Shown: positions 11,916-49,397, counted from the stretch's first letter. The stretch is DNA of 64,000 nt from Cyanophora paradoxa CCMP329 (GCA_004431415.1 QPMI01000609.1:1-64000); one strand, 5' to 3'. Translations and numbers: made by a program. The notes: generated from the sequence alone by a model not told the origin.

Positions 11916-11948
11916 TACCAAACATATCGTGCTGTCTCTACTTGAAAC

Positions 11949-12386: not shown

Positions 12387-12493
12387 TGTGCCCCTTCCTG
12401 TATTCCAGACTGCCTCTCGATCGGCTGAGGTTTGACCCCCCACGTGTGCCTTTTTCTGCACCCCTGCTAAAACAGAGTACCCCGCCCACGGCC

Positions 12494-13444: not shown

Positions 13445-13446
13445 CA

Positions 13447-15250
13447 CTAAAACTCGATCACAACCAGCCCGTTTCCTCCAGGTCCCGTGGTACCCCCCGC
13501 CGCACAGGGTCCCTCGTAGTCGAGATCATCTGTTCTGGGAGCAGAGGGCCCCGTGTTACCATTGCCCCCTGGAACCGTCAAGGCACCCGTCACACCCGGT
13601 CCGCCAAAGTAACTGGAGCCCCCCCCACCAGCATAGAAGCCTGCACCGCCTCCATAGTACCCCGAGCCACCCCCGCCCCCCGAGTATGCAAAATTGCCCA
13701 CGATCGTACCGCCAGCGTACTTGGAGCCATCGGTTCCTGTGTGGCCGGCACCTCCGCCGGCTGTCTGCGTACCTGGTTGACCTGCTCGCAGTGTGCCTGC
13801 AAAATAGAAGGAGAACTTTCCTCCGGTGAGGCCCCCGCCAACCCCCCCGGGGCCAGTGTTGCCATGGTCAAGATGGCCGCCCCCTCCTCCAGCACCCGCC
13901 GTAATAATATCATCCGTGCCCCCTAGCAGGCGAATAGCAGACCGGCCACCCCCCGATGAGGAGTTTGTGAGGCACTGAACCTGGCCGCCGCCTCCATAAG
14001 GGGCCGCATTCGAGATTGCCGTAGATTTGCCGCCCCCGCCGACTATGATAGTGTACATGGCACCTGGGGTAACAGCCAGAACCCCAGACACGAAGCCACC
14101 CGCACCGCCCTGGTGGCTTCCGGATGCCCCGCCTCCTCCACCGGCCCCCCATAGCTTAACAGAGATCCTCGTGACGCCACCGGGAACAGTCCAGGTCTGG
14201 TCGGCGCCCCTGAATCGGAAGACAACCTTTGGGGCAGGATCGGGCTGCAGGAGCTGGTACCAGACCACAACCAACCCGGGCGATCCGTTATTCGAGCCTC
14301 CATTCCCCCCTGTCCCGGCAGAGGACTCGTAGTCCGCATCTCCTTGGTTGGCGGGAGTCGGGGTTGCCCCTGAATGGGTCAAGCCCCCCGTCACTCTAGA
14401 ATGGGACACAAAGCTGGAACCACCGCCGCCGCCGTTTTGCCCGCCGCCGCCCCCATAATAGCCCCCGCCTCCACCGCCGCCGACAGATGCATTGAGATTG
14501 CCGCCCTTGAATTTCTGGCCGGCCTCTCCGCCCGTTCCCCCAGCGCCCCCTGCTACCTGGGATCCACCGAGACCGCTGTGTGTGTACCCCGAATACCCGT
14601 TTGCACCGCCCACAAGCCCACCTCCCCCTCCCCCTCCGCCGTACTGAATTCCAGCCGACCCCCCTCCTCCGGCAGTGATGAGCTCTTCTGCACCCTCCAG
14701 GATGGCGGACCGTCCGCCTCCAGATCCCATCCCCGTGCTGTAAGTGTGGTAGACCACGTGCCCCCCTCCGCCGTAGACTGGGCTGAGGCAAGCCCCGAAG
14801 TTACCGCCGTACAGCCCTGGGCCTCCGACTACAATCGTCAGCCTTGTTCCGGGGGTGACAGACAGGGTCCCGCCTGCAAACCCACCACCCCCCCCATTGT
14901 TTGTCGACGCGCGTGCCCCGCCCGCACCCCAGAGTTTAATGGTTACGCTTTGGACCCCGTACGGGACGGTCCAATCCTGATCACCCCCCGTGTACCTAAA
15001 AACCGCCTTTTCGGGCGCTGGCGGTGGAAGCAGTACAGGCTTCAAGGGCGGGGACAGGATGCGCAACAGCGAAAGTCCGGACCCCACTGCAATGCTGCCT
15101 ATGCGCTCAAATGCGGCGGAGTTGAGGTACTCACCGAGCCATTCCCTATTTGCGCGGAAGATCTGCAGCGAGGCCCGAGTCGGGACCAGGAGGAGTGTCC
15201 ACGGGGAGAGGTGGGAGATCCCAAGGCTGGCGTAAGTCCTCGGGGCCTGG
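13447..15250 (-). CDS. Glycine-rich protein with two tandem Gly_rich (ALK/LTK-type polyglycine) domains, probable fibre/adhesin; no ATG, probably 5'-truncated
   Basis: Two copies of VFR(Y/F)xGxDQxWTVPxGVxxxxxKLWGAGG...GGGRSAI...ITAGxGG...GYYGGG...GGGGSS...GLVV. The track start at 15087 is GTG and the frame stays open upstream. Confidence 0.75.
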
Positions 15251-15861
15251 TGATCCCATTCCTCGCCCGTGCGACAGGCTCCTGTTCCGGCGGCAGGGTC
15301 GGAGGGGTGGGCTGCACAGGTTCTGGGGCCTTTGCACCCCCTGGAAGGTGGCCGTCGAACTCCCGGTTTGCAAGGAAGGTGACCCCCCCTTGCTCGGAAA
15401 ATAGGGGATCCTGTCTGGCCTCCTTCAGGGTAAGCCCTCCCCTCATGAAGACAGCCTCATCTGTGAGCCTGTCCACGAAAGCACGGAAAGCAGGTCTTCG
15501 CAGGGCCCGAGCTCGTCCTCAAGCGCTGCAACGGCCCTGAGGTACCGTGCACGGGAGCCCTCGTCGTGGATGGATAGGAAGGAGCCCATCAACTTTCCAG
15601 TGATCTGCCTACCGGGCCAAACCCAACCGGCCAAACCTCCTACGATCACGTGCCTGTACCCCATCCCCGTCCAGAATTTGAATTCGGCCAACTGTTATTT
15701 TTTTACAAGAACAACATGGCTACTTTGCTAGAGGTAGCGCACGCAGACAGCAGAAGAGCGGGTCGCCATGATCAGGTTGAAGGGCGTCAACAGGGGACTG
15801 CCACGGGGCCCCCAGGCAAAGAGACCCCCGTACTTGATCTGGGGGACCAGCAAGAACATGG

Positions 15862-16103
15862 CGTGCACGGATCCGGGCTGCCCGCCAGCCCAGCGGAGGG
15901 ACGCTTGCGGTTACTGCGGGCAGGACGGTAGCACGTGCACGGAGGTCCCGTGTGCGCCCGGGCACGTTCGAAATCCGTGCGGGAACGAGTGTATCCACTG
16001 GGAATCTCAGGAGGCCATCGATCGCTTCAATTGCATCTCCAGGCTCCTGGGGAGGGGCAGGAACTTCGAGGATCCCTTCCGCACGAGGTGGGCCCTATGG
16101 TAG
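15862..16103 (+). pseudogene. 3' fragment of a Cys-rich (DACGxCGxDxSxC) protein
   Basis: CTDPGCPPAQRRDACGYCGQDGSTC; same repeat type as 28720-29208. Confidence 0.6.
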
Positions 16104-16111
16104 CTGAAAAG

Positions 16112-16175
16112 TGTGAGGGGCTTGGCCGGTTTTGCTTTCTTTTATACTGTCCCAAAACCGGCCAATCCCCTCATA
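16112..16175. terminator. 23-bp stem hairpin between convergent viral ORF ends
   Basis: tgtgaggggcttggccggttttg / 18-nt loop / caaaaccggccaatcccctcata, with one mismatch and one G-U pair. Lies between stops at 16103 (+) and 16234 (-). Confidence 0.65.
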
Positions 16176-18287
16176 TGAAAAACCGGTACCCCCCTTTTCC
16201 AAAAACTTCACATGATACGGTCACCTGAGCCCATCATATGAAATACCAGTACCCCACATGTCCAAACATAGACTTTACGGGATCAAATTTTCTCCCAGGC
16301 CCGAATAAAGAAGTCCATGGCAGGCATGTATCCGGGGAGTTCCCCTCCGTGGACACCACGCCCGAATGGAAGGAGTACTTCAGCCTCACCCCGCCCGAGG
16401 GGGGTGCGTACAGGATGTGCGCCAACGAGTGCAGGCCCTTTGAGATCCCGATCTCGGGGTGCGCAGACAGGATGCGATGGCGGCCAGGAGATCAGCCGGC
16501 AGTAAAAGTAGCATGGGGGGGTTTGGCCCGTGTCAGTTTTGGTGGCAAGAAATCCCAGATCGGTCCAGAAAAGTACAAACCCATGAAGTTAGACTGGCGG
16601 AAGGTTGCGGGGGCCACAGCGGCGGCGGCGGCAGGCGGGCGGTACCCCGGGGCGGCATTCGGGGCCTGGGACTGGACAGGGTGGTTCTCCCGGCGAGGCA
16701 GGGCCTGGGGCACACCAGCACCCTGACCGTTGAGGACGGAGAGAGACGCGGCCTCAACCATGGCTATATTGAACTGCGAATGGTACTCTAGACTTTAGAA
16801 AAAAAAACCGACCGCACCTCCGACGAAGGACCTGGCCACAACCCAAACGCGACCCAACAATGTCTGCGGCGACATACCACCGTTCCCAGAGCAGCCCGGG
16901 TCCCCTGTTGACGCCGAACCCTACTGGCATAGTGTCACTTTCCGACATAACACCGGGCGAGGCGGAGGAGGCTCTGGGTCGGCACGTTATCGGTTGCGTC
17001 TACTGCCTCGGATATGCGGAGAACGGCGTCCAGGGCGAAGGCTTCCAGGTTTCGCGTGAAATCTGCCCTCTCCCTTTCTTCTCTCATCTGCTTCAGGTCC
17101 TTCGCCCACTCCTGGGCTCGGGTCTGGAGGTTTGTGGGATCTAGGAGCTCCATTGTGATGCACGGTACGAGAGGAGGGGGGAGGTTTGCCGTCCGCGGAT
17201 CAACAGACGTGGCCCCCTTTGCCTGTCTCTCGGCCCTCAGAATCAAAGCCACAAAGCTTCTGGTTCCAGATCAATACTACTCCTGCAACGCTCTACACTC
17301 CAAACGACCTTGTCGGTTTTGCCATGACGGGCATCCGGCTCGTTCGAGGGAGGTCCTGGAGTCCATGGTGCACTTCACGGAGACCACCTGGACGGCCCCG
17401 ACGGCCGGGGGCTCGGGGCAGCGGACGATCTGCAGAGTAGGTGGCCCCCCAGCCGGTATCCCATCCGGTGAGGGATCCCGATTCGGAGGGGGAGGCCAGG
17501 GTGCAAAGGCAGGCCAGCGGATTGGCCCCATTGGCCAGGATAAACACCCCCCTGTCCCGCTTTGCACTGTTGACATCCACGCTGTTTTCCTCGAGTACTC
17601 CCGCCAGGATACGGCCTGTTCGGAGGTGGCACCGGGGGTCTGGCAGGCCTCCTAAGCCCAGGAAGCCCCGAGTTTCATGTCGTAGCATGGGCATGCCCCG
17701 GTAGCGTAATGAAAGGAGGGTACCTCATCACCCCCCGCAAGAACGCGCAGGTCTGCCTTGTCTACACCCCTTTCGGCCCCTACAGAACATCCTGGCAGAG
17801 GTACGACGGTGACTCTCCTCTGCTGCAGACTGTGCACCCTTCTCTGCAAGTAACCTCACTGCAGTAGTAAACCGAATCACACGGGTTACATTTCCCGCAA
17901 AGATATTGTAAGAATCTTCTGGAACGATTCTGTAGAAGCCTGCAACCATCTGCCTGCTCATCTGCTCTAACTCGGCCAATTCCCTGATTACATCATGCTC
18001 TGGGATGTTCATGTTTTGCAACAGTCTGCAGGAGGCACAGGAAAAAGTTTTAGCGGAAGTTCTCCCGGATAAGGCAGAAAGGACCCCAGAACGGCCCTAT
18101 TGCCATTCCAGCCAGGCACTCAAAGCCCGCCTTGACTGCAGCGGTTGCCGGTTTTCTCCGTCGCAGGTCCTTGTGTGCCTCCTCCCATTTTGCTTGAGTG
18201 TCGCCTGTTTTGATGCACCACAGGAAGGAGAACAAGTACAGGGGCTGGGCGACGCCGACGTTTGGAATGGGCGCCGTGTGCCTGAAG

Positions 18288-18566
18288 CTAGTGACCCCGC
18301 TGGGACTCTGGGCGAAAGTGGTGGTGCAGGGAGTGCCTGAATGCGAAAGAAGAGAACTCAGAGAACGTGCATGAATCAAGGAGCCCCCAGCTGGACCTGA
18401 ACTGCTCCAGCGATGCCCAAACCTCCAAGAGATCGTCAATGTGGTCAGCAATCCAGGACGACTCGGCCCTGGTCATGACGTGAGAGTTGTAGGTGTGGCG
18501 CGGGCCCGGGGGGGCGAGATCGCTACCTCTCCTGCGCCCGGCCCCGAATGCGTGAAGTGAGCTCAT
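18288..18566 (-). CDS. Small protein resembling a conserved NCLDV hypothetical family
   Basis: WIADHIDDLLEVWASL..LLDSCTFSEFSSFAFRHS matches the W...DL..W..L...F.DF..F pattern recalled from algal/Imitervirales viruses. Confidence 0.45.
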   Translation of the reverse strand: MSSLHAFGAGRRRGSDLAPPGPRHTYNSHVMTRAESSWIADHIDDLLEVWASLEQFRSSWGLLDSCTFSEFSSFAFRHSLHHHFRPESQRGH

Positions 18567-18657
18567 GCCTGTTGTACGAAAAAGACCTAATTTAGTATAT
18601 TCGGAACGAGAAAGAAAACAGAGCGGCGTCCGGCCGCGCCCGGGCATGGGGTGGCGC

Positions 18658-18966
18658 CTAGTAGTAGTAGTCCTGGCCGTAACCGCCGTAGAAGTCCTGG
18701 GCTGCGGCAACCTTCTTGCCACCCATGGCGGAACCGGCCACGCTAACGAGGGCCAGGAGCAGGCCTGCACAGTTGGCAGCCGTAAGCGTGCCAATCAGGG
18801 CGACCTTCTCCTGGGAGGCGCCCGCATCCTTGGCGCGAGTGATCTCGGTGCCGGCCAGGATTACATTGCAGAGGAAGATGATTCCAAGGAAGATCCAGAA
18901 GATCATACATTTGCCCTTTGCGTTCGGGTCGCAGAACGTGATAAAGCCCGGGAGGTGGAAGGCCAT
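18658..18966 (-). CDS. Small two-TM viral membrane protein
   Basis: 102-aa ATG-to-stop ORF with two hydrophobic helices and an A8 tract ~40 bp upstream. Confidence 0.6.
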   Translation of the reverse strand: MAFHLPGFITFCDPNAKGKCMIFWIFLGIIFLCNVILAGTEITRAKDAGASQEKVALIGTLTAANCAGLLLALVSVAGSAMGGKKVAAAQDFYGGYGQDYYY

Positions 18967-19044
18967 TGCGTGCGAGTGGGAGGCTGTGTGTAGTGTAATG
19001 AAAGAGATTTTTTTTGAACACAGGACCCCTTCTACTCGAAAGAA

Positions 19045-19705
19045 TCAATCCCCTCCAAAGCCGGGTCTCCCGGCGTGGGAGGGACCGGCCCCGGGGTCGT
19101 CCCCAAAATCGGGCCCCGCAAAATCCCCGGACCCCTCCTCCTGCAGAATCACATCAACTCCGGAGACGACCCGGGACGAGATCCGCTTCTGCTTGTACAT
19201 GCGGGTGACGGAACGTTCCGATACCACAAGCTTGCAAGTTGTGAATGCGGTCGAATAGAGCTCCTTGTCCCACTTGGGCTTGTTGACGTTGTTCTCCTTG
19301 CACCAGTTGAAGAACGCTTCCCTGAAGATGCGCTCGGGGCACCATGCCGTGCTTCGGAGGACGACACTCTCGCTCCCGAGGAAGGCATGGACGGGGTTGA
19401 GCTGCATCATCTCGGCCTTGGTCTTCTTGAAGTACTCAGGAACGACAATCCAGATCCCCTGGTTGCCGTACTGCTCGATCGCAGCAAGGTACGCGCGGTT
19501 TCCCTTGACGAGAAGGGCAGGGAGCTCCTCCTTGAGCTTCAGGGGCATGAGGGAGTCGGTGGCCTCCACGGGGCGGTTGAACTCGATAACCATGACACGG
19601 CGAGAGACCGACCCCGAGTTATCGATCCAGCCGGGGCGCTCGTTTCCGGCCAGTATGCCGGGGACGGTCCACCGGACGCTGATGGGCCGCTCACCCTTGA
19701 TTCGG
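19045..19705 (-). pseudogene. D5-like primase-helicase, C-terminal fragment
   Basis: SVRWTVPGILAGNERPGWIDNSGSVSRRVMVIEF...ELPALLVKGNRAYL (SF3 motif C and Arg finger, plus C-terminal domain). Walker A/B absent. Confidence 0.85.
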
Positions 19706-20647
19706 AGGCACGGGTGTAGGAGTTGTGGAATACCAGCTGACTGACGGCGGGGATGCAGGATGCATCGATCGCCGCCTGCTCCCACCGCGGGTGCGTGGAA
19801 TCACCATCGAGCCAGGGCGGCTCCATCGATCCTGTAGACGAGCGTGGCCTCCACTACGGACTGGCCCGCCTGGTTCAACCAGGCCCGGCCCGTATCACCG
19901 CGGGGCGCCGCGGGAATCGCCGGAAAGAAGGAGAGGGATCCTGTCCCTTCTGGTCCCGCGGCCCTCTGCAGCATCAGCCCGGGGACGATGGGAGTGGGGC
20001 AGCCTGTAGTCGGCCCGCATTGTACAGTGTACAGAACGAATACTATCCATACACCGCCCGCATCAGGACGGGCCGGGACATGAATCTCTCCACCTCGGCA
20101 ATGCCCCAGAACTCGCCTCGTCCCTCGAACCTTGAAACGCCCGACGCCCCACCGCAGCCACCGAGGCCGGCGGGGGTGGTGGTGGAAGTGACCAGGAACC
20201 CGCAACCCTCCGAGGGCCGCCCCCGTCCTGAGCCCGCCAGGCCCACCATCCCTTCGCTGGATCACAAAAGCGAGCGAAGGGCGTTCGGCGAGATCCGGTC
20301 AGCCGTCAAGGCCAGGAGCCCGATCGGACCCAACACCTTCCTGCCCAGCGTTAAGATGACGATGGGCGACTTTGCGCTCCGGTACCTTGTGAACAGGATC
20401 CGGAGGCGGGATGAGCTCAGGGAGGCCAGAGAGGGCCCAAAAGATTTTCCGGGCCCACAGGGATCCGACGACCCTGGTGGCTACCATGGACTCTAGCGAT
20501 CGCCCTATGTTTCCGCTGTACTACAGGCTGCCGACCCACACCTTTTTTAACCGGGATGCACGTCGGTCTTACTCGCTCGACTACCCCTCGTTCCGCACCC
20601 CCTCCTTCCGTGATCACAGGATGTACCAGGCGGGACCCTCCCACGAG

Positions 20648-21031
20648 TTGTGGCGTAACTTCTTCGGCTACTTCGATTACCCGACATTCAAGCAGGTGTT
20701 CTCCCAGGTAACCCAGAACTTTGGGGTCATTGTGGGGGATAACACAAAGCCGGGTGCCGCCCGCTCCGAGGACGTGTGCTTCTGGTACCTCGCGGAACAG
20801 CACCCGGCCTTCAGGCTAGGGAGCATGGCTTTTTGGAAGTACCACCTCAAGTACTTTGACCCCAAGGGCGACGATACCTCCGATTCGGATGACGGGTCGC
20901 GGATCCCGGGCGGAGGGGGGAAGGGTGCAAAGGGGGGTGGTGTGCAGGTGCGAAAGGTACCCGCCCTTGGCTTGAGGCCTGGGCCAAGGCAAGAAGAAGT
21001 AGATGAAGATAGCGATATTTCGGATGTTTGA
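20648..21031 (+). pseudogene. A32-like packaging ATPase, C-terminal fragment fused to an unrelated 5' ORF
   Basis: LWRNFFGYFDYPTFKQVFSQVTQNFGVIVGDNTK...EDVCFWYLAEQHPAFRLGSMAFWKYH, typical of NCLDV A32 C-termini. Confidence 0.85.
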
Positions 21032-21413
21032 ATTCAGTCTGGTATACATTCGCAGCGAGTCACGGGAGTAAAACACTGTAACGAGCAAGGATCTCCAGCT
21101 TGGCCCGTTGGGTGTAGGCCCATGCACTCATTGGCTCTTAGGTACTCGTTTCCAGGCTCCCCGTCGTTCTGGCCGTCTCCCAGGCTCGGCGTGGGGCGCA
21201 AAAGAGGTACATCCACAACCCGCTCCGAATTGGGCATGCCGGCAACCCAGGAACGGATCCGGGAGATGCCGATAGTGTACCAGACGCTGAAGGTGGCGGA
21301 GGAGGCATCGCGACGGGAGAGCCTGGCGCTGACCCTCTGAAATGGCATGTCCCGTCCGAACCGGGGTCCCACAGGAGCCACGTAGTAGGGAGGCGTCCAC
21401 TGTTCGGGGCGCC

Positions 21414-21821
21414 TCAGCTGTGACCTGAAACGGATGCCGACGAATATGATCCGCTCGGATTCCGAATCACCCCAGTTTCCGGGATGTCCACCAGAACACC
21501 TGCGAAAAGGGCTAGTTCGTCTCGTTTCGCGGGGGAGGCGGCGCGCAGGGCGGCACGTACCCCCTCGAATACGATGCGCCGGTTCGACAGGTTGGCCTTT
21601 CGGAAGGCTTCCTCCATCAGCACCGAGACAATAGTAAATGCCTTTTCAATGGATTTCGTATGAAGACGGAGCTCGTCGGGCGGAACCCAAGTCATCTTTT
21701 GGGGATCTATACCCTCTATGAAATCTAGAATGGCTTCAATTCGCTCCATCGCGGACACACGCCACTCGGCCCCCCGGTTAAGGGCACCAGGGGGAGGGAT
21801 GGGCGGGGGCAAAAGATTCAT
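21414..21821 (-). CDS. Hypothetical helical viral protein
   Basis: Intronless ORF with an A6 tract upstream. Confidence 0.4.
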   Translation of the reverse strand: MNLLPPPIPPPGALNRGAEWRVSAMERIEAILDFIEGIDPQKMTWVPPDELRLHTKSIEKAFTIVSVLMEEAFRKANLSNRRIVFEGVRAALRAASPAKRDELALFAGVLVDIPETGVIRNPSGSYSSASVSGHS

Positions 21822-21893
21822 ATTCACGTACCTTCTTGCATATGGAAAAAATCGAGACCCGCCAGAGTGCTGTGATAGATAAAGGCCGAGGAA

Positions 21894-22580
21894 TCAGCGG
21901 CGACGTGACCGAGCGCTCGCAAGGGCACGGCGGACCACAGCCGCCGTGGCCCTGCGCACGTATGCATTCGAACGCCGACGAGGAGGGGGTGCGGTCAGCA
22001 GGAGGATCTGGGGCTCCGGAACTGCCATGGCAATGGGAACGGACGAACGCCGGGCCCGCGACCGCTTGGGCTTGGGGGGGCTTTGATACTCCTGGGTAAT
22101 TACAATCCGGGGGTTGTTGGTGAGATACCGTTCCTGCTCATCGATGGTCATATCCGTCCCGAATCTGTCAAGCGCGGGACCATACAATTTGAGCAAGGCC
22201 GCCGTTGGGCCGTTCTTGTTCGCGAGCGATCCCAGCAGCGACTTATTCCCAATTGGCCTCGCGTGAATAACCGCAAGCTCTTCTGGGGTATAATTATTCT
22301 CAATCGACGTGGGTCGCTTGCGTTTACCGCGGCTGGGCCCTGCCTCCACGACCTCAATGTGGTTCTCAGGGATAACAAGACGCCCGGTTCGCTTGAAGAT
22401 TTCCATCATTCCATCTAGCAGACAGGTGGATCCCGCCCTCCGCATCGAATCCCCGGGGTGTGATGGTGCGGATGTAGGGATCGTGCCCCTGTACGATCAT
22501 CGCCGTGTACTCCTGGAGCTTGTGGAATTCAGCCTGGCGGATCAGGACTTCGGCCGCCAGCTTCTGGGGCTGGGTCCAGC
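21894..22580 (-). pseudogene. Hypothetical viral protein fragment(s) with basic C-terminus
   Basis: Overlapping frames 22366-22587 and 21894-22445; no ATG at the 5' junction. Confidence 0.4.
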
Positions 22581-22925
22581 CCCGCAAATTCGAAGACCGT
22601 CTCGTCGATTCCGAACTTGGCAGTGAACGGAACCTTCAGAACAACCTGCTCCGGACCCTGCCCGGTGGGGTTCTTGATCACGTAGATTGCACCGTTGTTT
22701 CCCCTGCCCAGCTCCCCAAGTATGCTGATCTGGGTTCTGCTTGGCTCGAGGTAGAACTGGTCCATGCTCTTGAGTATGCCGGCAACCGGGCCGCTCGCCC
22801 TGCTGGTGGCGATCCTGGACCACGCAAGGAGGCACTCCCGCTTCAGGTCGCCCTCCGAGATCGTGTACCACCTCATGAAAGTTGCGGGATCGGCTGCATC
22901 ATCCTTGGTCTCCCTGGGATCAGAG
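22580..22925 (-). pseudogene. Ser/Thr protein kinase N-lobe fragment
   Basis: ILGELGRGNNGAIYVI...QVVLKVP (Gly loop and VAIK-equivalent); the remainder is missing. Confidence 0.65.
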
Positions 22926-22928
22926 GCG

Positions 22929-23477
22929 CTAAGTCGTCGAAGTGGAGGGGCCGGCACCGGCCTGCGTAAGGAGATCTGCGGTTGTTGTTCCGGTTCCCAG
23001 GCCGGACGAGGATCCCGTTCCGGCGCCGGATCCGGTGCCCGTCCCCTGATCGCTACGGGGGCACCGGGGATCGTTGGGGTTCGCGGCGCAGAACATACCG
23101 ACCACCGTCCTGCAGTCCGATCCCTGGCGCATGGTGCACCCATCGACGCAGGAGTAGGAAACACGGAGATTCTTGGAGCTCTCGTAGGCCGGGTCGCCGC
23201 CCTGCCCGTAGCCCCTGTAGGAATCCACTCCCCAGGTGCCGTCGCCCCCGGCCATCGGAGAGAGGGTGGTCCCCGGCCACGATGTGTTCTCCACCCTCTG
23301 CTGAAGATGCGCCGTGAAGTCCGCATTCTGGTGACTCGGGCACGTGAGGTCCGTTCCTGTACCGTAGCAAGCCTTGATGATCTTGGGAAACTGGCACGAG
23401 AACACGAGGGGTGTCGTCACTGCATCCGCCCGATCTATGTTGGGGTGGCGAATGGGATCAACTGCAAAGGAGCTCAT
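22929..23477 (-). CDS. Paralog of the lectin-A16/G9-like protein, short or truncated
   Basis: FSCQFPKIIKACYG...GGDPAYESSKNLRVSYSC...FCAANPNDPRC aligns by eye with 12494-13444; no TM tail. Confidence 0.7.
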   Translation of the reverse strand: MSSFAVDPIRHPNIDRADAVTTPLVFSCQFPKIIKACYGTGTDLTCPSHQNADFTAHLQQRVENTSWPGTTLSPMAGGDGTWGVDSYRGYGQGGDPAYESSKNLRVSYSCVDGCTMRQGSDCRTVVGMFCAANPNDPRCPRSDQGTGTGSGAGTGSSSGLGTGTTTADLLTQAGAGPSTSTT

Positions 23478-23532
23478 TCCAGGTAATCCTATTCTGTCCT
23501 GATATTTTTTTGTGGTGCACTACGAAATAACA

Positions 23533-23841
23533 ATGGCGGATTCCAACCGGTACACGGAAGAGGAGGAGCAGGGGGGCGTTCAACGATGGCCCACGAAGCG
23601 GGCGAGGGTGCTGACGGCCCTCGGCATCGCCTGGGTCCTGGCCGGGCTAGCGGGGTTTGTATGGAGCGTGGTGTGCCTCTCCAGGAAGGGTGATTCTTGG
23701 GCCAAGGCGGGTGGGCTGATCATGTCCGCCGCGCTGGGCCCCTTCTACTGGCTGTACTACTACCTCGCCCGACGGAATGGGGGTACGTACTGCAGATCGA
23801 ATCCGGCTTTCAACCGTGGTTCGGCAGGCCTCGAGCGCTAA
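23533..23841 (+). CDS. Two-TM membrane protein of a family recalled from algal/Imitervirales viruses
   Basis: WVLAGLAGFVWSVVCL..GD..AK.GGL...LGPFYWLYY...YC motif. Confidence 0.6.
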   Translation: MADSNRYTEEEEQGGVQRWPTKRARVLTALGIAWVLAGLAGFVWSVVCLSRKGDSWAKAGGLIMSAALGPFYWLYYYLARRNGGTYCRSNPAFNRGSAGLER

Positions 23842-24754
23842 AAGAACTTGGGGGTGACGAATTCCTTGCGAGAACTCATGGCACCGCACTGGTGGTACGT
23901 GTGGGTCTGGTGGAAGCCCCCGTAGTGGACCGGGGCGGCCGCAGGGGGGGCGCTGGACTTGCAGCCGCACTGGCGGTACCCGTGGGATCCTGTAATTCCA
24001 AGGATACCCTCTATCTTCTTCGTCCAGTTTGCGACGATCGTCTTCGGGATATCGATCCCCTCCGTCTGAGACATGCATTCGAGCGCACGCTTCAAGACGG
24101 ACAGGACGGCCTCGTCATCGACGGCGGTCGCGCCGGGGTTGGACGAGCTGAGGATCGCGAAGATGTTCAGCCCCGCTTCTCCGCTCTCCAGCGCGGCGTC
24201 CCGGATGCAGCGGTACATCGCTGGGCCCGCCGAGGAGATGCACGATGCCCCACACTTCGGGACCAAGAACCCCCCGCGGATGACTGGGAGCGGGCCAGAC
24301 CGCTCACCCCCGAGCCCGGCACCCGAGATGACCTGCACGCCGCCGAACTACCGTGTCGACCTCTTCGAAATTGAGTCCGGCCTATATGAGACGAACTTTT
24401 GAGTCGCGATGAAAAAAAAGTTTTTTTGTGAAAACTTCGATCGAGACCCATAAGGGGGGGGCTCTCGAAATCGAGGGGGTCGACACGGTTTGTAAAAAAC
24501 TGGACAGATGTCAAATCGCAGCGCTAAGGAATTCCGGCAAAACGTCCAGGTCGCCCTCGGAAGCAGGACCGAGGCACACGCCCATGCGTTGGAGCTCCTT
24601 GCGGCCCTGGAACCCGGCGGCCTGGCTGGATTCAATTCTTGGGCATCTCATCAGATCGAGTCCATGGAGGCCACACTCGAACCAACGCAGGATTTGGCGC
24701 TCGAGCTTGTGGATGCCCTCTTTACTGCAACCCCCAGGGATGCAGGGGATTCGC

Positions 24755-25070
24755 CCCCCTGGAGACTGCATTTTCCCACGATACCAAACGAGCCTTTCCC
24801 CAGATCTATGTCAGAGCAGATCTGATCAATCAAATGGGGTGGGATGTAGCGGTGGCTCGGCATGTTGGCATCGAAACTCGCACTCGAAAACCTATATGAG
24901 GGGCCGCCAAGCCTCTGTAGCGCTGAAGAAATGCCCATGAAAATACCTCGTATGTCTTGAATGGAATCGTGATCCGGGATGAGCGTTGGATCATTTTGAA
25001 TTCGATCTTCAAATTTCCACCTAAGGGCATTGAACTCTTGAAAAATTGCCCCAGTAGACATTGTACGCAA
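24755..25070 (-). pseudogene. Second kinase stub, abutting a convergent truncated + strand ORF (24508-~24755)
   Basis: IDLGKGSFGIVGKC, then coding sense is lost. Confidence 0.5.
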
Positions 25071-25103
25071 ATCCTATAAACGCAGATAATTCTTCCTACA
25101 CGA

Positions 25104-25766
25104 CTAATCGGATATCTGGATAGCGTCTCGGGCAGTTTTGCCATCACGGGGGCGCGAATCCGATGGACCGAAGGAGCCCAGAAACTGTAGGTCCCCCCCA
25201 GAAGAGACGCGGGGCTGGACACGGGCTGGGGGCTGGCGGTCATAGTTGTACCGCACCTGCGAAATGCGGAAAGGCTGGGCGGAGGGCGGGGTGGGCACCG
25301 GTTCCTGATAGTTGTACCTCACTTGGGAAATGCGGAAAGGCTGGGCGGCGGGCGGGGTAGGCACCCGAACAGGGGGTTCCGGATAGTTATACCGCACTCG
25401 CGAAATATCGAAAGGCCGGGCGGCTGGTGGGTTAGGCATACTTCCCGCAGGATCGGTATCGTAGTTGTACCGCACTTGTGAAATATCAAAAGGCTGGGCG
25501 GCGGGTGGGGTAGGCACGCGGCGGGGGGGTTCCGGGATGGTTACCGCAGCATCCCGAGCGGGCTGGCCGTAATTGTAAGCAATAGGGAATGGTAAGTTGG
25601 GCCGGGGAGGCCCTTCGTGCCTTGCCCGGTGTGGTGCAGGTTCCTCCTCCTCGGGGGAAGCCAGAGGACGCTTACGGGTTGCTACTGGTTGCGGGTGGAT
25701 GTCGAGTCGCCTAAACTCAGCAGGCTGCCTGCCAGGTCGGGGGCCTGTCAGGACAGCGGCAGGGGG
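25104..25766 (-). CDS. Pro-rich repeat protein 3' fragment, fused in frame to the A32 N-half
   Basis: Four P(T/N)PPxAxPFxISxVRYNY repeats plus one degenerate copy (PFPIAYNY). Confidence 0.65.
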   Translation of the reverse strand, partial: PPAAVLTGPRPGRQPAEFRRLDIHPQPVATRKRPLASPEEEEPAPHRARHEGPPRPNLPFPIAYNYGQPARDAAVTIPEPPRRVPTPPAAQPFDISQVRYNYDTDPAGSMPNPPAARPFDISRVRYNYPEPPVRVPTPPAAQPFRISQVRYNYQEPVPTPPSAQPFRISQVRYNYDRQPPARVQPRVSSGGDLQFLGSFGPSDSRPRDGKTARDAIQISD

Positions 25767-26192
25767 CTGGGCCGCTATGACCAAGTGGATGCCGTTGTGT
25801 CTCCCGTTCATGAAGACGTAGCGCATGTACCGATCGTTCGCGATCGCACTCTTGTTGAAAAGGCAATCGTCCAGAACGATGAACACGCCAGGTGGCTTTT
25901 GTCCCGTCTTCGCAATCCTCTGCTGGTTCTTGACGATTCCCTTGATGACATCGGGATCGTACTCTGCATGGATGAACAGGCCCGGGCAGTGCTTGGACCA
26001 TGTTGGGTTCGCCGGCGATTCCGTGGGGGAGAAGATGACCCCGGAATCTATGTGCCGGTAGTGGTACATCAGATCGAGCATCAGGGTTGTCTTCCCTGAA
26101 CCCCGCCGCCCAATCACACCGAAGACTCGGTAACCCGAGAAGTGTTTCGGATCGAACTTCCTGAGGTGCAGGCTCTGACCCCCGGGCGGCAT
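25767..26192 (-). pseudogene. A32-like packaging ATPase, N-terminal half
   Basis: LRKFDP..VIGRRGSGKTT (Walker A), FSPTE, FIHAEYD, FIVLDDCL (Walker B), FMNGRH..VIAAQ; homology stops immediately after the Q. Confidence 0.92.
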
Positions 26193-26241
26193 CCTTCAGG
26201 TGTTGCCGCGGGGAAAAATCGGGGGGCCACGAACACGCTGT

Positions 26242-26718
26242 TTATGCAGAGACCTTGACAAGCCTGAATGATGCATTCCAACCGGGCATCTTCTTCTGGA
26301 CAGGCCGGCTGCGGCCCACCTTCTTGGATGCCTGCACCCTGAGCACAAGATGGACGGCCCTGCTCTGGGCCCACTCTATGTACTCGTTGTCTCGATCGAT
26401 CGACCTGGAGTACCAGGCGCTCCGGGAATGGATCTGACTCTTCATTCGCTGAATGGCCTTCTTGTGGCTCGCTTCCACGGCCCGCGGCCTCAGGCTCCCT
26501 TTCCGTGAACCAACCGTTGTTCTCATGCGGGCAAGCTCGGCTTCCAGTGCAAAAAGCTGCCCGTGAAGCTCGTCTATCTCCAGGGGCCAGGCCCGTACGA
26601 GCGCGTCCCTGCGCGCTATGATGGCCGGAATTCTCTTTTCAAGTTCCTGCAGCTCATAGTATTCCTTTGTCGCCTTTCCCACGGGCTTGTAAACACGGCT
26701 TGATTTCGTCTGCGTCAT
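26242..26718 (-). CDS. Hypothetical basic coiled-coil viral protein
   Basis: MTQTKSSRVY... to stop at 26242. Confidence 0.45.
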   Translation of the reverse strand: MTQTKSSRVYKPVGKATKEYYELQELEKRIPAIIARRDALVRAWPLEIDELHGQLFALEAELARMRTTVGSRKGSLRPRAVEASHKKAIQRMKSQIHSRSAWYSRSIDRDNEYIEWAQSRAVHLVLRVQASKKVGRSRPVQKKMPGWNASFRLVKVSA

Positions 26719-26777
26719 TCCCCCGGTCGTGTTGCAAGGCGGGCAAGAAAATAATACAGGATGAGCGTAATCGGCGA

Positions 26778-27220
26778 TCAAAGGGGGGTGGGGGCCTGAG
26801 GGAGGGCGAGGAGTTTGGAAATGGCCTTGATGATCCCCTCCCTGTCGAGGCTCGCATCCTGGAGGACCTTTGCGGCGTTCATCCGCAGCTGCTCCTTTGT
26901 CAGGTGCTCGAAGTTGTACACGTTGAAAGTCGAGACCCGGATGCACGAATTGCACGTGATGAGCGCGTCACTTCCGCCCACGATGGTGAGATCTGCAACG
27001 CGCACGCGAACCTCCGACAGCTCGGGGCAGTCGGGGTGCGAGAAGCCCGGTAGGATGAGGAGCTGCCCCTCGGCGACCGGTCTGTTCCAGAGCGTGCCGT
27101 ACAGGAAGTCGACTAGCTTGTGGTCGTGGTCCCTGGTGATCCTGTCCATCGCAGGGTCCAGGAAGATGACTGTGCAGCTCAGCACGGTCCCGAGGTCGTG
27201 CAAGACCTCAACAGCAACGG
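26778..27220 (-). pseudogene. 5'-truncated hypothetical protein
   Basis: Open frame with coding-like codon use but no ATG at its left-facing start; divergent junction with the + strand fragment at ~27225. Confidence 0.45.
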
Positions 27221-27226
27221 TCTTAG

Positions 27227-27760
27227 ATGCACCAGGGGGCTCCCATCAATTTCTGCAGGAACCCCGCGCACGGCAGACTCTGCCTTGCGTGCTTCAAAAC
27301 CTGGGTAGAGGCCAAGGTGAGGTGCCTGGAAGATAACAGGCCCGTTGCGATGAACCGCACGCTCTTCCAGGTACAGCAGGCGGGGCAGGTGGAAGCCGGC
27401 AATGCATCCTTCCGCCCCCCAACCAGGTACAACTACAACCCGCCCCCTCCACGCAACACAGCCCCCCCAACCCGGTCCGATCCAGTACGGCCCGCGCCCC
27501 CAGATGGTCTACCGGCCCCCTTCCGCCCCCCACCCCGGTACGACCCGACCCGCCCCAGCTTTTACCCGGCTCGACGAGTTCCACAGGCCGGTGCAGGGGC
27601 GCGAATGTTTGGTTACCTCACGCAGGCCGGCAGGGGCCTAGCGACCGCTGTCAAGGTCACAAGAGAGTTCATGGGCAGGGTAGATGCGGCACGCAGGGAA
27701 ATAGAGGTGAGGGACAGGACGAACCCGGCAAATCTGCCAATCAGAGGAAACCAGACCGCT
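27227..27760 (+). pseudogene. Fragment with partial RING-like Cys/His cluster and Pro-rich region
   Basis: FCRNPAHGRLCLACFKTW..RC followed by RPPTRYNY-type Pro-rich sequence. Confidence 0.4.
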
Positions 27761-28719
27761 GCCCACATTGCGGTACATGCCGACCTGGATGGTGACGACG
27801 AGCGTCCGGAGCGATTTGGGGATGTCGTCCTTTGCCCTGGAGAAGGCAAGGGGGTCGATGTAGCGCGGCACCGAGTAGTTGTAGATGCGTCCATCCAGGT
27901 AGACCTCCTCGAGGCCTGGGAGGCCCCGCAGGTGTGCGAAGGCCTACTGTCTGTACGCCGGAAACACACGCTTCACCCAGAACTCCCTGCCCTGGATCGG
28001 CCACCTGTTCCGAAAGACGACCGGCTCCAGTACCGGAGGAGGCCGACTGCGGGCGGGGCCGGGAGGAGGACGACGAGGAGGACGCCATATGCATTCCACC
28101 CTGGGGGCTGAATCTTTTCCGGCCCGCGCAAACGCGGTGGTGCCGGGCGTACAGTTCCCTGAGGGTCGCACGGTGCTTGGCTAGCGATGGAAAGTGCTTG
28201 CCACCGAAAGGATAAGAGGCAAAGGGGGGTGCAGGAGTCCCGTTGTCACGGTAGTCCGGCATGCACGAGGCACAGTGAAAGGCGACCCCCTCCAAGAGGC
28301 AGTGCATGGAGCCAAGAGCCAAGGCCATCGAGCCTTCCTGTGCGGGCCCCTCTAGGGATCCGCCCTGGCCTACCAGGGTTTCAAAGGCCCTCTGCGCTCC
28401 TGCGAGTCGTTGGACTCTAAGGCAGGCCCGGCTTGCTGCATCGGCTTCCAGTTCGCTCATATTGGCAGTACACGGGACGCTACCCCCTACAGCCCACACT
28501 TCTGCAGCTGGTCCGGACGCATGGGGCGGAAGTGGGTGAACCCCATCTCCATCAGGAGGTCAAGGCGGTGTGCCATCGCCTCCTCGAGCGTGTCGAACTG
28601 GGCGGCCTCCTCGTCATCCCCGAGCCGGTCCGATGTCCACTTGGTCGTTCCGGCAATTTCGGTCCTCCCGTGGACGAAGAACTTGCCGGATTCAGTATCT
28701 TTCTGCACCAGGAGCGGGA

Positions 28720-29208
28720 GGTGGAATCCTCACCGGGGGGGCATCCGGTGGCGGGACAGACATTGGGCGTCTCCCCTTCAAAGGCACAATCCCCGCAGCC
28801 GTTTCTGTAAGAGCTGGCCATCTCGCACCCGGGACCCCGGCAGGCCGAACCGTTGCCCCCACAGTCTCCACAGTCGTCACGGTGGATGCCCGCTGGGCAT
28901 CCCCTGTCTGTGCAGAGGTTCCCATTGCCACCACACATGCCGCACGCATCCCGAATCATCCCAGGGGGGCATCCCTTGGAGGTGCACGTAGAGTTGTCAC
29001 CCCCACATATTCCACATGCATCCGGGGGCTCCCCCAGCCGGCAGTTGAACACAACATTGTTCTCTTCGGGGGAGGTTGTTCCAGTGACCTCCAGGAGATC
29101 TCGTGCCCTTGATCTGGAGGCGCGGACCGACAGGAAGGTAGCGTAGGCTGCGGCCGCTATCAGGATGATCAGGATAACCGCCTGGTCGATACCTGTCCGA
29201 CCAGACAT
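28720..29208 (-). pseudogene. N-terminal TM plus Cys-rich DxCGxCGGxxSxC repeat protein, 3'-truncated
   Basis: TM AVILIILIAAAAYATFL, then DACGICGGDNSTC, DACGMCGGNGNLC, DDCGDCGGNGSAC. Confidence 0.7.
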
Positions 29209-29216
29209 GCATCGAG

Positions 29217-30395
29217 TCAACACACACAACCTGCTACCGAGAAAAAGTAGAGGGCACTACACCGAGGATGAACAGAGGCGGACACGAAGGGCTGGATGAG
29301 CCCGTCGCCCTCGTGGCCGTAGACGGAGATGGTGGCCATCTCCATCCCGAGATTCAGGAGCAACATGCCGGTAAGACTCGCAAGCGTGCTCGCAACCCCC
29401 TCCTCGTGCGACATCCCGGCGGCGGTGTCTGCCATGTTCATCACGGGGATGTGCATCTCGAGGGTGCGGAGGGCGCTCGGCAGGGAAAAGGATTCGAGGG
29501 GGAAGCTGATGGGACCCTCGCGCCGCTTCAGGTTGCCGCTGATGATGATGAGCTTCTCGAGCGACTCCCACTTCTTCGCACTCCGCAGGATGCACCGGAC
29601 CACCTCGGTCGAGCAGGTGTTGGCGGTGAAGGTGACCTCGCGGGGGCCGGCCTCGTTGTGCGGGATGCAGTAGAAGCAGGCCCCCAGCGTGGAAGGGTCG
29701 TCCGCTTGCTGCTCTCCGGGCACCCCGAGGATGCTCATGAGGCCCCCGAGGCTCCCGGCGGACGCCTCCGACATTCTGAACGAGCGGCTGGGGTCCTCTG
29801 GGTATCGGCGGACGGTGAACCGCTGGATGTTGGGAAACGCCGCCCCAACCCCGGGCATGTCGATCTCCCAGGGCGGCGGGTGGGAGCTGGCGTTTGCGAT
29901 GAGAACCGTGAGATCATCGACCGACGGCAGGGGTGTCCCCGGGAGCCAGTCCTCCTCGCCCTCCGCCGTCAGCTCTAGCGTCCTGAGGTTCGGGAGGGGG
30001 GCCTGGACGTTCGCCTTGCCGGCGGCCTTGAGGACGCCACCGAGTTCCGCGGAGGAGCAGGAGAGCCGAGCGAGGCGGGAGAGTGCGACGCTGAGGTCTG
30101 CCCTGGTGCGGGTGGAGACGTGACTGCCGATTTCCACCGGTACCGGCCCGCTGCCATTCGGTCTCTTGAGGGCGAGGGTGGTCGCTCCGATTTTGGAGAT
30201 GCAGGCCAGCAGCTCGACGGCCTTGAAGGGGGCCCGGGGGATGTCCTGGACCATGGTGATCTCCGACGGACGGGCGTGCTCCGGGACGAACGCCTTCACC
30301 CACGTGAAGAAGTTGGAAGCGGCCGGCGTCATGTCGCCGGGGGCCCCGAAGCGGCTGCAGTAGCGCGTGTAGGAGTGCAGCTCGTACGAGACCAC
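29217..30395 (-). CDS. Leucine-rich-repeat (RNI-like) protein
   Basis: LPNLRTLEL, LPSVDDLTV, FPNIQRFTV, SLEKLII, ALRTLEM motifs; start uncertain. Confidence 0.55.
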   Translation of the reverse strand: MVSYELHSYTRYCSRFGAPGDMTPAASNFFTWVKAFVPEHARPSEITMVQDIPRAPFKAVELLACISKIGATTLALKRPNGSGPVPVEIGSHVSTRTRADLSVALSRLARLSCSSAELGGVLKAAGKANVQAPLPNLRTLELTAEGEEDWLPGTPLPSVDDLTVLIANASSHPPPWEIDMPGVGAAFPNIQRFTVRRYPEDPSRSFRMSEASAGSLGGLMSILGVPGEQQADDPSTLGACFYCIPHNEAGPREVTFTANTCSTEVVRCILRSAKKWESLEKLIIISGNLKRREGPISFPLESFSLPSALRTLEMHIPVMNMADTAAGMSHEEGVASTLASLTGMLLLNLGMEMATISVYGHEGDGLIQPFVSASVHPRCSALYFFSVAGCVC

Positions 30396-31046
30396 CGTGC
30401 ATCCACGGGAGCGCAGGAAGGATCGCCCCAGCAGGCGATGTCTGCGTCATCACCTCCCCGAAGCGCCCTGGAATCGACCTTGATGGATGCGTGGAGGGAG
30501 GGAGTGATGTACGGAGCTGAGTGTCCCACCCCCCTCTTCAAAGGCCCTGGGGGCCGAGGTTGGTGGCCGTGGTCGCATTTCCCTGGGTCTGGGCACGGTA
30601 CAGGAGGTCCTGCAGGTCCATGCTGGTCATCTGGGAAGTCTACGTGCAGGGCTTAACCCCCACCGGGGCAAGGGCTGGCATGGTACCCCAAAGGACCACA
30701 AAAAGTCGGATCGGACCCAGACGCCTGAACGCGTCCCCCCGGCCCACCACAAACTCTCTGCTACATTGCAAAAGCAGCCAAATGCCGGCAGAGTCTGTTG
30801 AAACAGTTCGAGACCCCGTCACCGTCGTTCTGCACCTGCTCCTGATGGGGCGGTCCGCCGGACACCCGTTCGTGCAGATATCGGTGTTGGGGTACCAGCG
30901 CCCTCCCAGGCGCGGCTGATCTCCACTCCTACCGTCCAGCTTGATCGTGTGCTTGCCTTTCGCTTTCCGTTGCCATCCGTATGCTCGCAGTCCATGTTCT
31001 GCATGTCGATCTTCAGGACCAGCTGGTGTGGGTTTGGACCCTTTTA

Positions 31047-31244
31047 GAAGACCTGGGGGGCGCAGTAGACCCCGTTTCGGTACGCGAATATGTGCCGGTC
31101 CCGCACAAGCTCGGGAAACTCCATCGTCAGGCAGTTCTTGAGGCTGGTGACCAGGCAGCCCCTAACCGACGCGTGGGAGTGCATGAGCTTGTACATGCTG
31201 TAGTAGACATCCTTGTTGGTGAGCTCCTCGACCAGGCGCTCGAT
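31047..31244 (-). pseudogene. D5-like primase-helicase, internal (D5_N region) fragment
   Basis: LKNCLTMEFPELVRDRHIFAYRNGVY matches the F.EL..DRH..SF.NG.Y motif. Confidence 0.75.
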
Positions 31245-31449
31245 TGACATGATCAACGAGGTGGACGCTAAGCTTGAGTCGAAAGCATCCGCGGCCGGGC
31301 TTTTCAATAGCTTGACAACAAGTATTCTATTCATCGTGGCGGGCATAGTGGTCATTGCCTTCCTTGTCATTCGTTTCGGGAAATCAAAACCGAAAGCACC
31401 TACATCCGCGGCGGCTGCTGCCACCGCAGCAGCCGCCGCTGCCACCTAA
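31245..31449 (+). pseudogene. C-terminal fragment of an L1/F9-like virion membrane protein
   Basis: INEVDAKLESKASAAGLF, then a TM helix and basic tail; 5' part missing. Confidence 0.45.
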
Positions 31450-31599
31450 GAGGATGGGAAGAGGATGGATGCCCGGGTGGAGAGGATAGAATCGGGGGGG
31501 TTCAGGGCCGGGGTGTTCGATTCTTCCGACGCACACTCGGCAATAACGGACCACTGCTGCTCCCCCCTGCGAACGGCGATCAAGCCGAACCCGTAGTTT

Positions 31600-32234
31600 C
31601 CGGTATTGATGTCACCGCTTTCCATCCTCTCTGCAAGGCGCTTGATCTTGTTGGCCCCTGCTGGGTTGGCCCGAGGGCTGCAGCTGATATCAGTGGTTTA
31701 TGCCATTCAACCAAAGAAACCGCCGATGATCTTACAAGACTGCCTAGCGTCCCTTGCCATCGCAGCATGGGGCTCGTCCAGGTGGGTCAGCAACCACGTG
31801 AGGCGATGGACAGCCGCCTTTGCAGCCTCCGGCTGGACGCGGCTTCGGAGTACGATGTTGTGCCCCCCTTGATCCTGGCGGAGGCCATCCTCGCATCCCT
31901 ACCGGACGGCCCCGTCGTTCTACAGATCTCCCACGAACCCATGTGGTTGAACCCGGTGTACGAAACGGCCCGCGGGGCTCTGGCAGTTGCGGCGGCCGTG
32001 TTGGAGGGGCGCCCGGATCGAACCGTCAAGGTTGTCATGGACGTGGTGCCCCTGGGAGAGCTCGAGGCCTCTCCTGCATTCCTGGGCCAGCTGGTCAAGA
32101 ACGCAGCGGGCGTGTACCTCCGCAGCTGCATCGTTCCCGAGGGGAGGCCCAATTCGGCCTCTGCCCTTGCCTTTAAGGCCCTCGAGGCCGACGGAAGGAA
32201 GTTTGTGGTCACCGGGCACGTCGGCCTGCCTTGA
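31600..32234 (+). CDS. Hypothetical viral protein
   Basis: Open frame extending upstream of the 31767 ATG; start uncertain. Confidence 0.4.
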
Positions 32235-33232
32235 TGTGTGTGCGATGTGTACAGAGAATGGATTGAAACTGCCCCCAGAATCACTGTCACTTGAAATATA
32301 TTTCTGCTAGGTATCCTAGACACTCAAAAGGGTCATGCCGTCGAGCTCTATCGCAGTTCAAGGCCATGATGATGCAGAGGCAGGGCATCCAGTTCGATCG
32401 CAAGTTCGACGCCAACACGCCCCTTCCGGAGCTGCGGGCCGAGGTTCGCAGGGCCGCCCGCGTCACGTCTCCCAGGTTGTGCCCGAACCGGGAGAGCCCC
32501 AGCCGAGCGTCTTGGAAGCCGGATGCCACCTGGCCCCCCACGCTATTGTAAGCATCCCCAGCATTCTGCAGGCCGCGTGCCCACGCGCCTTGCATGCCTG
32601 CGTAGGCCATCGAAGGGTTTGGGTTTGCTCTGCGGTCAGAAAAAAACACCATGGCCCAGAATATATTATGTTGCGGTGATCCCGAGCCCACCCCGCCATG
32701 TCCGAAAAGCTAACGGCCACCGGCGCGACCCTCCTCCTAATGCAGAACAGATGGCCTGTCCAGCCTCGGGGCAATGTGGATTGTCATCTCCTTGGGAAAG
32801 AACCAGCGCTGGTTGAGCTGACGGGGACACCAGTGCTTTCCGTACTTTGCGCCGCGCTTCTTCTGCTTGTGGATCTCGTCCTCGACGACGAGGCCCTGGG
32901 CGTAATTCCACCCGATAACGATGTCCACAGTCTTGACGGCCGAGAACAGCGGGGAGCTCAGGGCCAAGAGGACAGCTGGGAGCCCTCCCTTGAGGTCGAC
33001 CCAGGGACCTCCTTTGGCTTTGATGCCATCGAGCACGGTGCAGGCGCGCTGGGTCTTGCCTGGTCCACCGTTGGCCCTGCGGCCCCAGAGCCGCCAGTGC
33101 AGGTTTTCGCCCTCCACATCAAAGATGACACGGCGGGGCCATGATAGGAACCGGGGCGGCCTGCATTGCACAACAACAAAGGGCACGCTGCTAGGTTGTT
33201 GGGGGGGAAAAAAATACTGACCAGAGTGAAGA

Positions 33233-33685
33233 ATGAAGGACAGAGGCGGGATACCGGTGGCCCCAATCCTTCTCCTGGCGACCCTTGCGGTTCTGGCACT
33301 CTTCTGGTTTTCAAGGGACGACCAGGGCGTGCCCAAGAGCGAGGCCCCGATCCAGGCTGCCCCCTTGCCCTCCAGGCCTCCCCCTGCAGCGGCTCCATCC
33401 ATCCCCCAGCAGCCCCAACTGACAGCCCCCGTGCCAGGCGCCCCTGTAGGATCTGCCGGGCCGATTATCACTGATGAGGGAGGTGCGGATGGGTGGGACT
33501 ACACGGATGAGCTTGAAAAGCTGATTCCCGAGGTGCAGTCTCCTTACATCCCTCCCGATTCCGTCTTACCCTCCGCGGGTCCCGTGCTTGTTGCCCCCCC
33601 AATCGAACAATCCAGCGGGCCGGTCGAGATCGACGAGTGGGATGCCGACTGGTACACTGGGGGCTGGGACGAAGAATCGACCCCA
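33233..33685 (+). pseudogene. Signal/TM-anchored Pro/acidic protein, 3'-truncated by a convergent Cys-rich fragment (~33680-33940, minus)
   Basis: MKDRGGIPVAPILLLATLAVLALFWF... with an A7 tract upstream. The opposite strand reads CTGTGLCNSHCP/CTATGVCDDTCP/CSPTGTCNTTCP. Confidence 0.6.
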
Positions 33686-34010
33686 GATCGGTACCTGTCC
33701 CGAGGGGCAGGTCGTGTTGCAGGTTCCTGTAGGGGAGCACTTCATCCCGTCGGGGCAGTTGTACACCCGGTACCAGCCCGGGGGACACGTATCATCACAA
33801 ACCCCGGTCGCAGTGCAGAGGGTTCCGTCCTTGCAATCGGCGATCGGCCACGTCGAGGGGGGGCAGTGGCTATTGCAGAGGCCTGTTCCCGTGCAGACAT
33901 GTTTGCGCTCCTTCCGGATGATATCACGAGGAAGAGAGTACTTATAGCCGGCGGGGGCAATCCCCGGTCACCTTGCAGCCACCTCGCAGACCAAACCAGC
34001 AGCAGAAGCC

Positions 34011-34343: not shown

Positions 34344-34425
34344 GCCCCGCCCACCCCGCCCCACCAGCTAGCCGGATGTACAGCACGGCCAGGCTTTCCA
34401 ATTCCGTACTTTCATTGCGCATGTG

Positions 34426-38567: not shown

Positions 38568-38586
38568 ACCGGTGTACCCCGCCCAC

Positions 38587-49349: not shown

Positions 49350-49397
49350 CGGAACTCTCTCCGCCTGTCTTGCCGGTCTTTGTGTGCTTGATTCGCC

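Follow-up and report, generated by a model that had tools for sequence, protein, structure and literature searches.

A packaging ATPase gene probably split by a single inversion in an endogenous giant-virus segment of Cyanophora paradoxa

Results and Discussion

The gene for the A32 packaging ATPase, a hallmark of nucleocytoviruses, lies in two pieces on opposite strands within a 64,000-nucleotide stretch of the genome of the glaucophyte Cyanophora paradoxa CCMP329 (GCA_004431415.1 QPMI01000609.1:1-64000; the whole stretch is hereafter the window, and positions are counted from its first letter). One inversion of the 5.1 kb between the pieces, together with the loss of about 87 nt, suffices for this arrangement, and we consider it the probable course of events that the gene was split in this way, by a single inversion with deletion, in a dead and decaying endogenous giant-virus segment. 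The features that carry this reading are listed below; P0001 is an intact A32 ATPase of 293 aa from Logan.

25767..26192, minus strand: N-terminal piece of the A32 ATPase (N piece), 142 codons, with Walker A, Walker B, the NGRH arginine and the conserved Q144
20648..21031, plus strand: C-terminal piece of the A32 ATPase (C piece), from P0001 residue ~174 to the end, with an acidic Gly-rich tail and a stop at 21031
25104..25766, minus strand: Pro-rich partner behind the N piece, 220 codons, fused in frame, stop at 25104, sole Met at codon 110
25243..25535, minus strand: four repeats of 66-78 nt (PF.IS.VRYNY) within the Pro-rich partner
20411..20647, plus strand: non-A32 coding stretch before the C piece, fused in frame, likely start ATG at 20486
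20648..25766, no strand assigned: putative inverted block of 5.1 kb, deduced from the geometry, without an inverted repeat at its ends

Two complementary pieces of an A32 ATPase

Searched separately, the two pieces share P0001 as their best match, which ranks first among 959 matches for the N piece and heads the 2 matches for the C piece. The N piece aligns from 26177 to 25767 on the minus strand with P0001 residues 8-144 (113/137 identical, 82%), and the C piece from 20645 to 20863 on the plus strand with residues 173-245 (56/73 identical, 77%), its earliest clearly homologous codon being at 20648 (P0001 ~174). These alignments bear out the coordinates and strands that the original prediction had given to the halves, and also its description of them as non-overlapping and nearly complementary (P0001 8-144 and ~174-245), with only 29 codons between. 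The pieces lie 5.1 kb apart, and neither contains an internal stop or a frameshift. The open reading frame (ORF) of the N piece starts with an ATG at 26192 and reads on in frame into the Pro-rich ORF, ending at 25104, while the C piece is housed in an ORF at 20411-21031 on the plus strand.

A hidden Markov model (HMM) of A32, based on 120 homologs, recognises both pieces far beyond chance (E 3e-47 for the N piece and 7e-20 for the C piece), and many of the 959 N-piece matches carry PF04665; the Pfam Pox_A32 profile gave only 14.1 bits, below its cut-off of 22.8. Alignment and HMM also located the motifs from Walker A and B through GRH..AAQ that had been read in the N half, and all four catalytic motifs (Walker A, Walker B, arginine finger and sensor Gln) are kept there, with Q144 present in 120/120 homologs. 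The profile search extends to structures of B204 from Sulfolobus turreted icosahedral virus (STIV), and the NGRH arginine aligns with R127 of STIV2 B204, the proposed arginine finger (PMC4124505). The C piece carries the C-terminal W..FFG and FWY motifs of A32. Both pieces are parts of a nucleocytovirus A32 packaging ATPase of the FtsK/HerA superfamily.

Geometry of the inversion

Flipping 20648..25766 brings the start of the C piece to 25766 on the minus strand, directly beside the end of the N piece at 25767. The same flip places the Pro-rich partner at 20648 on the plus strand, directly behind the 5' stretch now fused to the C piece. Because the inversion restores adjacency and rejoins both partners, a single inversion and a small deletion are enough; the original prediction, in which an inversion left the halves non-adjacent and at least two events were needed, does not hold. 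The layout is what a reciprocal exchange between A32 and another gene would leave behind, without amounting to proof of one. Such an exchange would have begun with double-strand breaks at two places, in A32 and in a viral gene of opposite orientation; A32 would have lost about 87 nt by trimming at its break, and end-joining would have put the 5.1-kb block back the other way round, creating two reciprocal chimeric ORFs whose frames match by chance. Further breaks would have struck the same segment, at least three of them for D5 (see below).

The likely route is double-strand breakage followed by trimming and end-joining. The breakpoint neighbourhoods show no inverted similarity (the best end-to-end local score of 14 was matched or beaten by 461/479 random pairs), and the listed repeats include no inverted pair at the block ends. 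The window frames compared with Pfam (149 frames), PHROGs (39) and NCBIfam (39) gave no match to a recombinase, integrase or transposase. It had been suggested that AAQP, shared by the N-piece junction and the repeat of its partner, hints at microhomology. AAQ does stand at the junction, but the case is weak: A32 itself has AAQ here, as does P0001; moreover, the junction continues with PPAAV and not with the PF.IS.VRYNY of the repeat, and the junction hexamer is found 9 times in 25107-25800. A 20-nt match (85%) links the N-piece junction to 25217-25236, and there is room left for a few shared bases at the junction.

A breakpoint motif common to the locus was considered and rejected: two 9-mers were found among 10 pairs, against 50/1987 random pairs reaching 9, and we took this as chance, the D5 ends being imprecise. 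Window positions 19683-19729 have a 9-mer in common with each A32 breakpoint window, which we likewise took as chance.

The fusion partners

Each half is fused in frame to a non-A32 ORF, as had been predicted, and each partner looks coding in its fused frame. The 5' partner (20411..20647), whose frame ranks 1/6 in a rough codon model trained on 12 segments of the viral element, contains a start but lacks its own stop; the Pro-rich 3' partner contains a stop, while its first Met comes only at codon 110. The two are likely the 5' part and the 3' part of one second broken viral gene. Within the repeats of the Pro-rich partner, 21/35 pairwise differences fall at third codon positions, and 19 synonymous stand against 7 non-synonymous codon differences, in pairs that are not independent. 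Open frames are cheap in this DNA, where 2051/7160 sampled 79-codon stretches are stop-free. The Pro-rich partner yielded no homolog in a search of lengths 121-385 and no match in the Atlas; the 5' partner yielded only weak Atlas matches (best 0.91, recognition under threshold), which we did not use. Similarity of either partner to the ORF at 27227-28111 was not significant.

Common origin of the halves, and an alternative mosaic

The strongest alternative, which we regard as possible but rather unlikely, is that the locus is a patchwork, in which many short pieces from one or two related viral genomes were end-joined at random, at or after integration. The halves would then lie close to each other and be complementary without any single reciprocal inversion, possibly deriving from two A32 copies. 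The other core gene of the segment, encoding the D5 primase-helicase, lends itself to this explanation:

19048..19704, minus strand: C-terminal piece of D5, profile positions 434-631 of 684 (19704-19120), E 2e-70
31056..31253, minus strand: internal piece of D5, 66 codons, profile positions 208-273, E 9e-17

D5 thus persists as a 66-codon internal island and a C-terminal piece 11.3 kb away on the same strand; its middle and N-terminus (profile positions 274-433 and 1-207) were not found in the window. Because the A32 block lies between the D5 pieces, the segment underwent several breaks, though A32 needs just one inversion. A map drawn from the codon model, rough as it is, also has many short coding stretches without a start or a stop.

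We asked where each half places the gene by building trees from the N and C columns separately, with 65 references (44/120 protein matches and 21/81 locus ORFs), a quick search and Shimodaira-Hasegawa-like approximate likelihood ratio test (SH-aLRT) support only. The N piece clusters with P0001 (SH-aLRT 99); the cluster of the C piece (SH-aLRT 100) includes both P0001 and P0121, the latter a EukProt protein of Cyanophora paradoxa that comprises only the C-terminal A32 part; all remaining rows are at least 1.6 changes per column distant. The two halves thus belong to the same lineage, as had been proposed, and do not group with different viral clades. Beyond the lineage of P0001, both pieces and P0121, the next matches reach 46% identity or less, leaving it on a long branch. 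In a midpoint-rooted A32 tree of 33 rows, P0001 stands on this long branch within an 18-row side (100/100) together with three genomes that are filed under Algavirales AG_04 (PMC8575486, where 3/6 names were found). Judged from A32 alone, the lineage is probably deep and on the Algavirales side, if loosely placed. No locus of a close relative was found for P0001 in viral and metagenome contigs, for the D5 piece in viral contigs, or for the ORF at 29220-30332 in metagenome contigs; 80 related A32 loci are distant (36-44%) and have in common with the window only A32 and, in 1/80, D5.

A diverged second A32 copy is present in the same sequencing runs. Its N piece differs at 20 positions in 136 nt (at window 25907-26042), and its C piece corresponds to P0121, loose contig ends at 20824 and 20862 translating to flanking residues of that protein, in agreement with C. 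paradoxa as the host. The two pieces lie on different contigs, a point in favour of a patchwork, although it is not established that they are one broken gene. The second copy is higher in third-position G+C (9/13 listed differences are at third positions), and because of this it looks like a separate insertion, which speaks against the patchwork. So do the halves at the locus itself, which are non-overlapping, lack only 29 codons between them and have similar identity to P0001 (82% and 77%), and the two partners, both of which match a reciprocal exchange in strand and frame where random joining would do so with a chance of ~1/36 by our own estimate.

Several points weigh against a single inversion of one gene. 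The D5 pieces require more than one inversion, so that a patchwork of many pieces fits equally well. That both fusions are in frame has a chance of only ~1 in 9 by our own estimate, the first 80 codons of the Pro-rich partner rank only 3/6 frames in the codon model, and neither the homolog nor the Atlas searches returned a homolog that ties the two partners into one gene. The identity profiles of the two halves across 64 distant references are uncorrelated (rho 0.11, p 0.39). Because there is only one close reference, the trees cannot settle whether the same gene copy was the source of both halves, and since a second diverged A32 copy exists in pieces in the genome, the halves could derive from two related viruses. 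The missing A32 middle may also lie elsewhere in the host genome. With these points counted, we still favour a single inversion with deletion for A32, within a segment that was broken several times.

The missing middle and loss of function

Neither tblastn nor an HMM of the A32 middle recovers P0001 residues 145-173 (29 codons, +/-1) from the window; the HMM, run over the six window frames, returned a single match at E 4.2, against E 4.5e-13 for the P0001 control. A short middle segment is indeed missing. The lost stretch contains P151, R154 and D158, each invariant in 120/120 homologs. In a predicted model of P0001 (predicted local distance difference test score, pLDDT, 78.6), the gap corresponds to helix 151-154, strand 159-162 and half of helix 168-179, within which the C piece begins. 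A complete RecA-like core in a single chain is not present, as residues 145-173 are gone, including strand 159-162. The A32 of this locus is likely a derived pseudogene and no working member of the family. Since a core strand and three invariant residues lie in the lost stretch, and the C piece opens in the middle of a helix, both chimeric products are likely dead; for the same reasons, the predicted model makes a working two-chain ATPase from the two pieces unlikely.

This bears on a second alternative, a programmed or functional split in which the pieces are rejoined by DNA recombination or trans-splicing, or act as two polypeptides, which we hold to be highly unlikely. The pieces are free of stops and frameshifts and fused in frame, the N piece retains its four catalytic motifs, and reassembly of scattered pieces has been proposed for phaeoviruses (PMC2373305). 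Against it stand the absence of the A32 middle from the window, the lack of inverted repeats at the block ends and of a recombinase in the window frames, and data that tend against reassembly (PMC11890097). Reading the gap as an intron or a trans-splice also fails, there being no GT after the N piece and a GAG before the C piece, which, as noted, starts inside a predicted helix.

Nor was any alternative form of the DNA encountered. All sampled words of 18500-28400 are contained in 20/24 listed sequencing runs, and in 4/4 short-read assemblies examined (dated 2012, 2019 and 2024, possible sources of the window DNA that may share strain or source) this region lies in a single contig that has neither gaps nor joints and not one differing letter. 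The check for other junction configurations that had been suggested thus returned none, which argues strongly against a common second configuration; contigs discard rare variants, so a rare form or strain differences could escape. The least probable alternative, that the window genome is misassembled (inverted chimeras being a known artefact of long reads), is very unlikely and largely refuted because 4/4 assemblies cross 18500-28400 in one contig without difference or alternative joint; in addition, 20/24 runs contain all its sampled words, and the D5 junction at 31056 is crossed by contigs with 0 differences in 3/3 DNA runs.

The host segment and its other features

The A32 and D5 pieces are the only hallmark nucleocytovirus genes in the surrounding segment:

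11200..36300, no strand assigned: endogenous giant-virus segment, ~25 kb, ends approximate, GC content 0.62, ratio of observed to expected CpG (CpG o/e) 0.85, dense ORFs

No capsid or polymerase family was found among the 149 window frames scanned in Pfam, and no terminal repeats of the segment were seen. Composition shifts at both ends, the flanks having higher GC and a CpG o/e of 1.09-1.14 against 0.85 inside. Contigs were computed to run from ~9.5-10 kb into the element (aligned only right of 18500), and overlapping contigs connect the element to a spliced host gene at 42700-45500. On these three grounds, the segment is joined to eukaryotic host DNA. Methylated, silent giant-virus elements have been reported in C. 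paradoxa (10.1101/2025.04.15.648976), and by analogy this segment may be methylated and silent; its CpG o/e is compatible with methylation but could be viral composition. The runs listed as containing the locus include no RNA run, and one presumed RNA run gave no long contig over the viral part; neither is evidence on expression.

Within the element, a 26-nt inverted repeat (81%) surrounds an A/T tract between divergent ORFs (24350-24489), perhaps a viral promoter or hairpin; a bacterial promoter scan, unsuited to this DNA, returned nothing there. Two minus-strand stretches (22577-22770 and 24654-24810) resemble by eye a protein-kinase N-lobe with its Gly loop and V.VK (Pfam E 0.08 for one of them); a catalytic lobe was not seen, and they are possible further gene fragments. 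Two Cys-rich paralog pairs occur (12488-13438, plus, with 22935-23477, minus, 40%; 15762-16100, plus, with 28555-29208, minus, 49%), and an apparently intact Gly-rich gene at 13450-15231 (minus) has two ALK/LTK glycine-rich domains (Pfam E 2e-25). To the right of the element lie a likely host gene matching an adenylate/guanylate cyclase domain (37296-38672, plus), a one-base difference between DNA contigs and window at 38702, large ORFs at 39870-41250, of which the same runs contain another, diverged copy at a different place and which have no family match in Pfam, PHROGs or NCBIfam, and a host duplication with 81% identity (46731-47203 and 49395-49908).

Comparison with known systems and implications

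The segment resembles the giant endogenous viral elements (GEVEs) of protists and algae, in which a nucleocytovirus gene block sits in a eukaryotic chromosome with core genes incomplete or in pieces, with partial copies elsewhere in the genome and no mobility genes. Fragmented, chimeric and non-mobile viral insertions have been described in Acanthamoeba (PMC12210455), Euglena (PMC12455990) and Porterinema (PMC11890097). In contrast to these, the damage to two core genes here is structural (inversion, deleted middles and chimeric ORFs) and leaves the pieces stop-free; the segment is also small (~25 kb), with A32 and D5 as its only markers. Compared with intact A32 ATPases, the gene is in two pieces, has lost 29 codons and belongs to a long-branch lineage. 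Genes can also be rearranged by site-specific DNA inversion switches, such as Hin, Gin and fim. These switches, like the reassembly proposed for phaeoviruses (PMC2373305) and later doubted (PMC11890097), have in common with our locus a gene broken by an inverted block and reciprocal chimeric ORFs. Our locus differs in having no inverted recombination sites, no recombinase within the window and one orientation in 4/4 assemblies, and because sequence was lost at the break, flipping cannot restore A32. The portions available of papers on degraded GEVEs describe duplication, chimerism, transposon invasion and fragmentation, and contain no inversion-split core gene. Among titles and abstract openings, none reported an A32 split by inversion within an endogenous element, although the figures or supplements of 10.1101/2025.04.15.648976 may show the locus.

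The finding is likely one of rearrangement-driven decay in a known type of element, an ordinary decay of integrated viral DNA. It provides a clean example of core-gene loss in an integrated giant virus, and it marks a deep virus lineage associated with a glaucophyte. It also counsels caution with marker-gene counts in such elements, which may count pieces as genes. The route by which such elements are inactivated has been described as unclear (PMC11890097). A32, D5 and, it seems, the second A32 copy have their breaks in conserved middle parts and yet are stop-free, and a speculative reading, which we think clearly unlikely, is that this host systematically cuts and rejoins fresh giant-virus DNA in its genome, disarming it in that way and not by slow point decay. 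The genome would in that case contain a shattered and reshuffled record of a glaucophyte virus lineage not yet described. If both core genes and the second A32 copy reflected a general pattern of this kind, this genome would make the question of inactivation testable.

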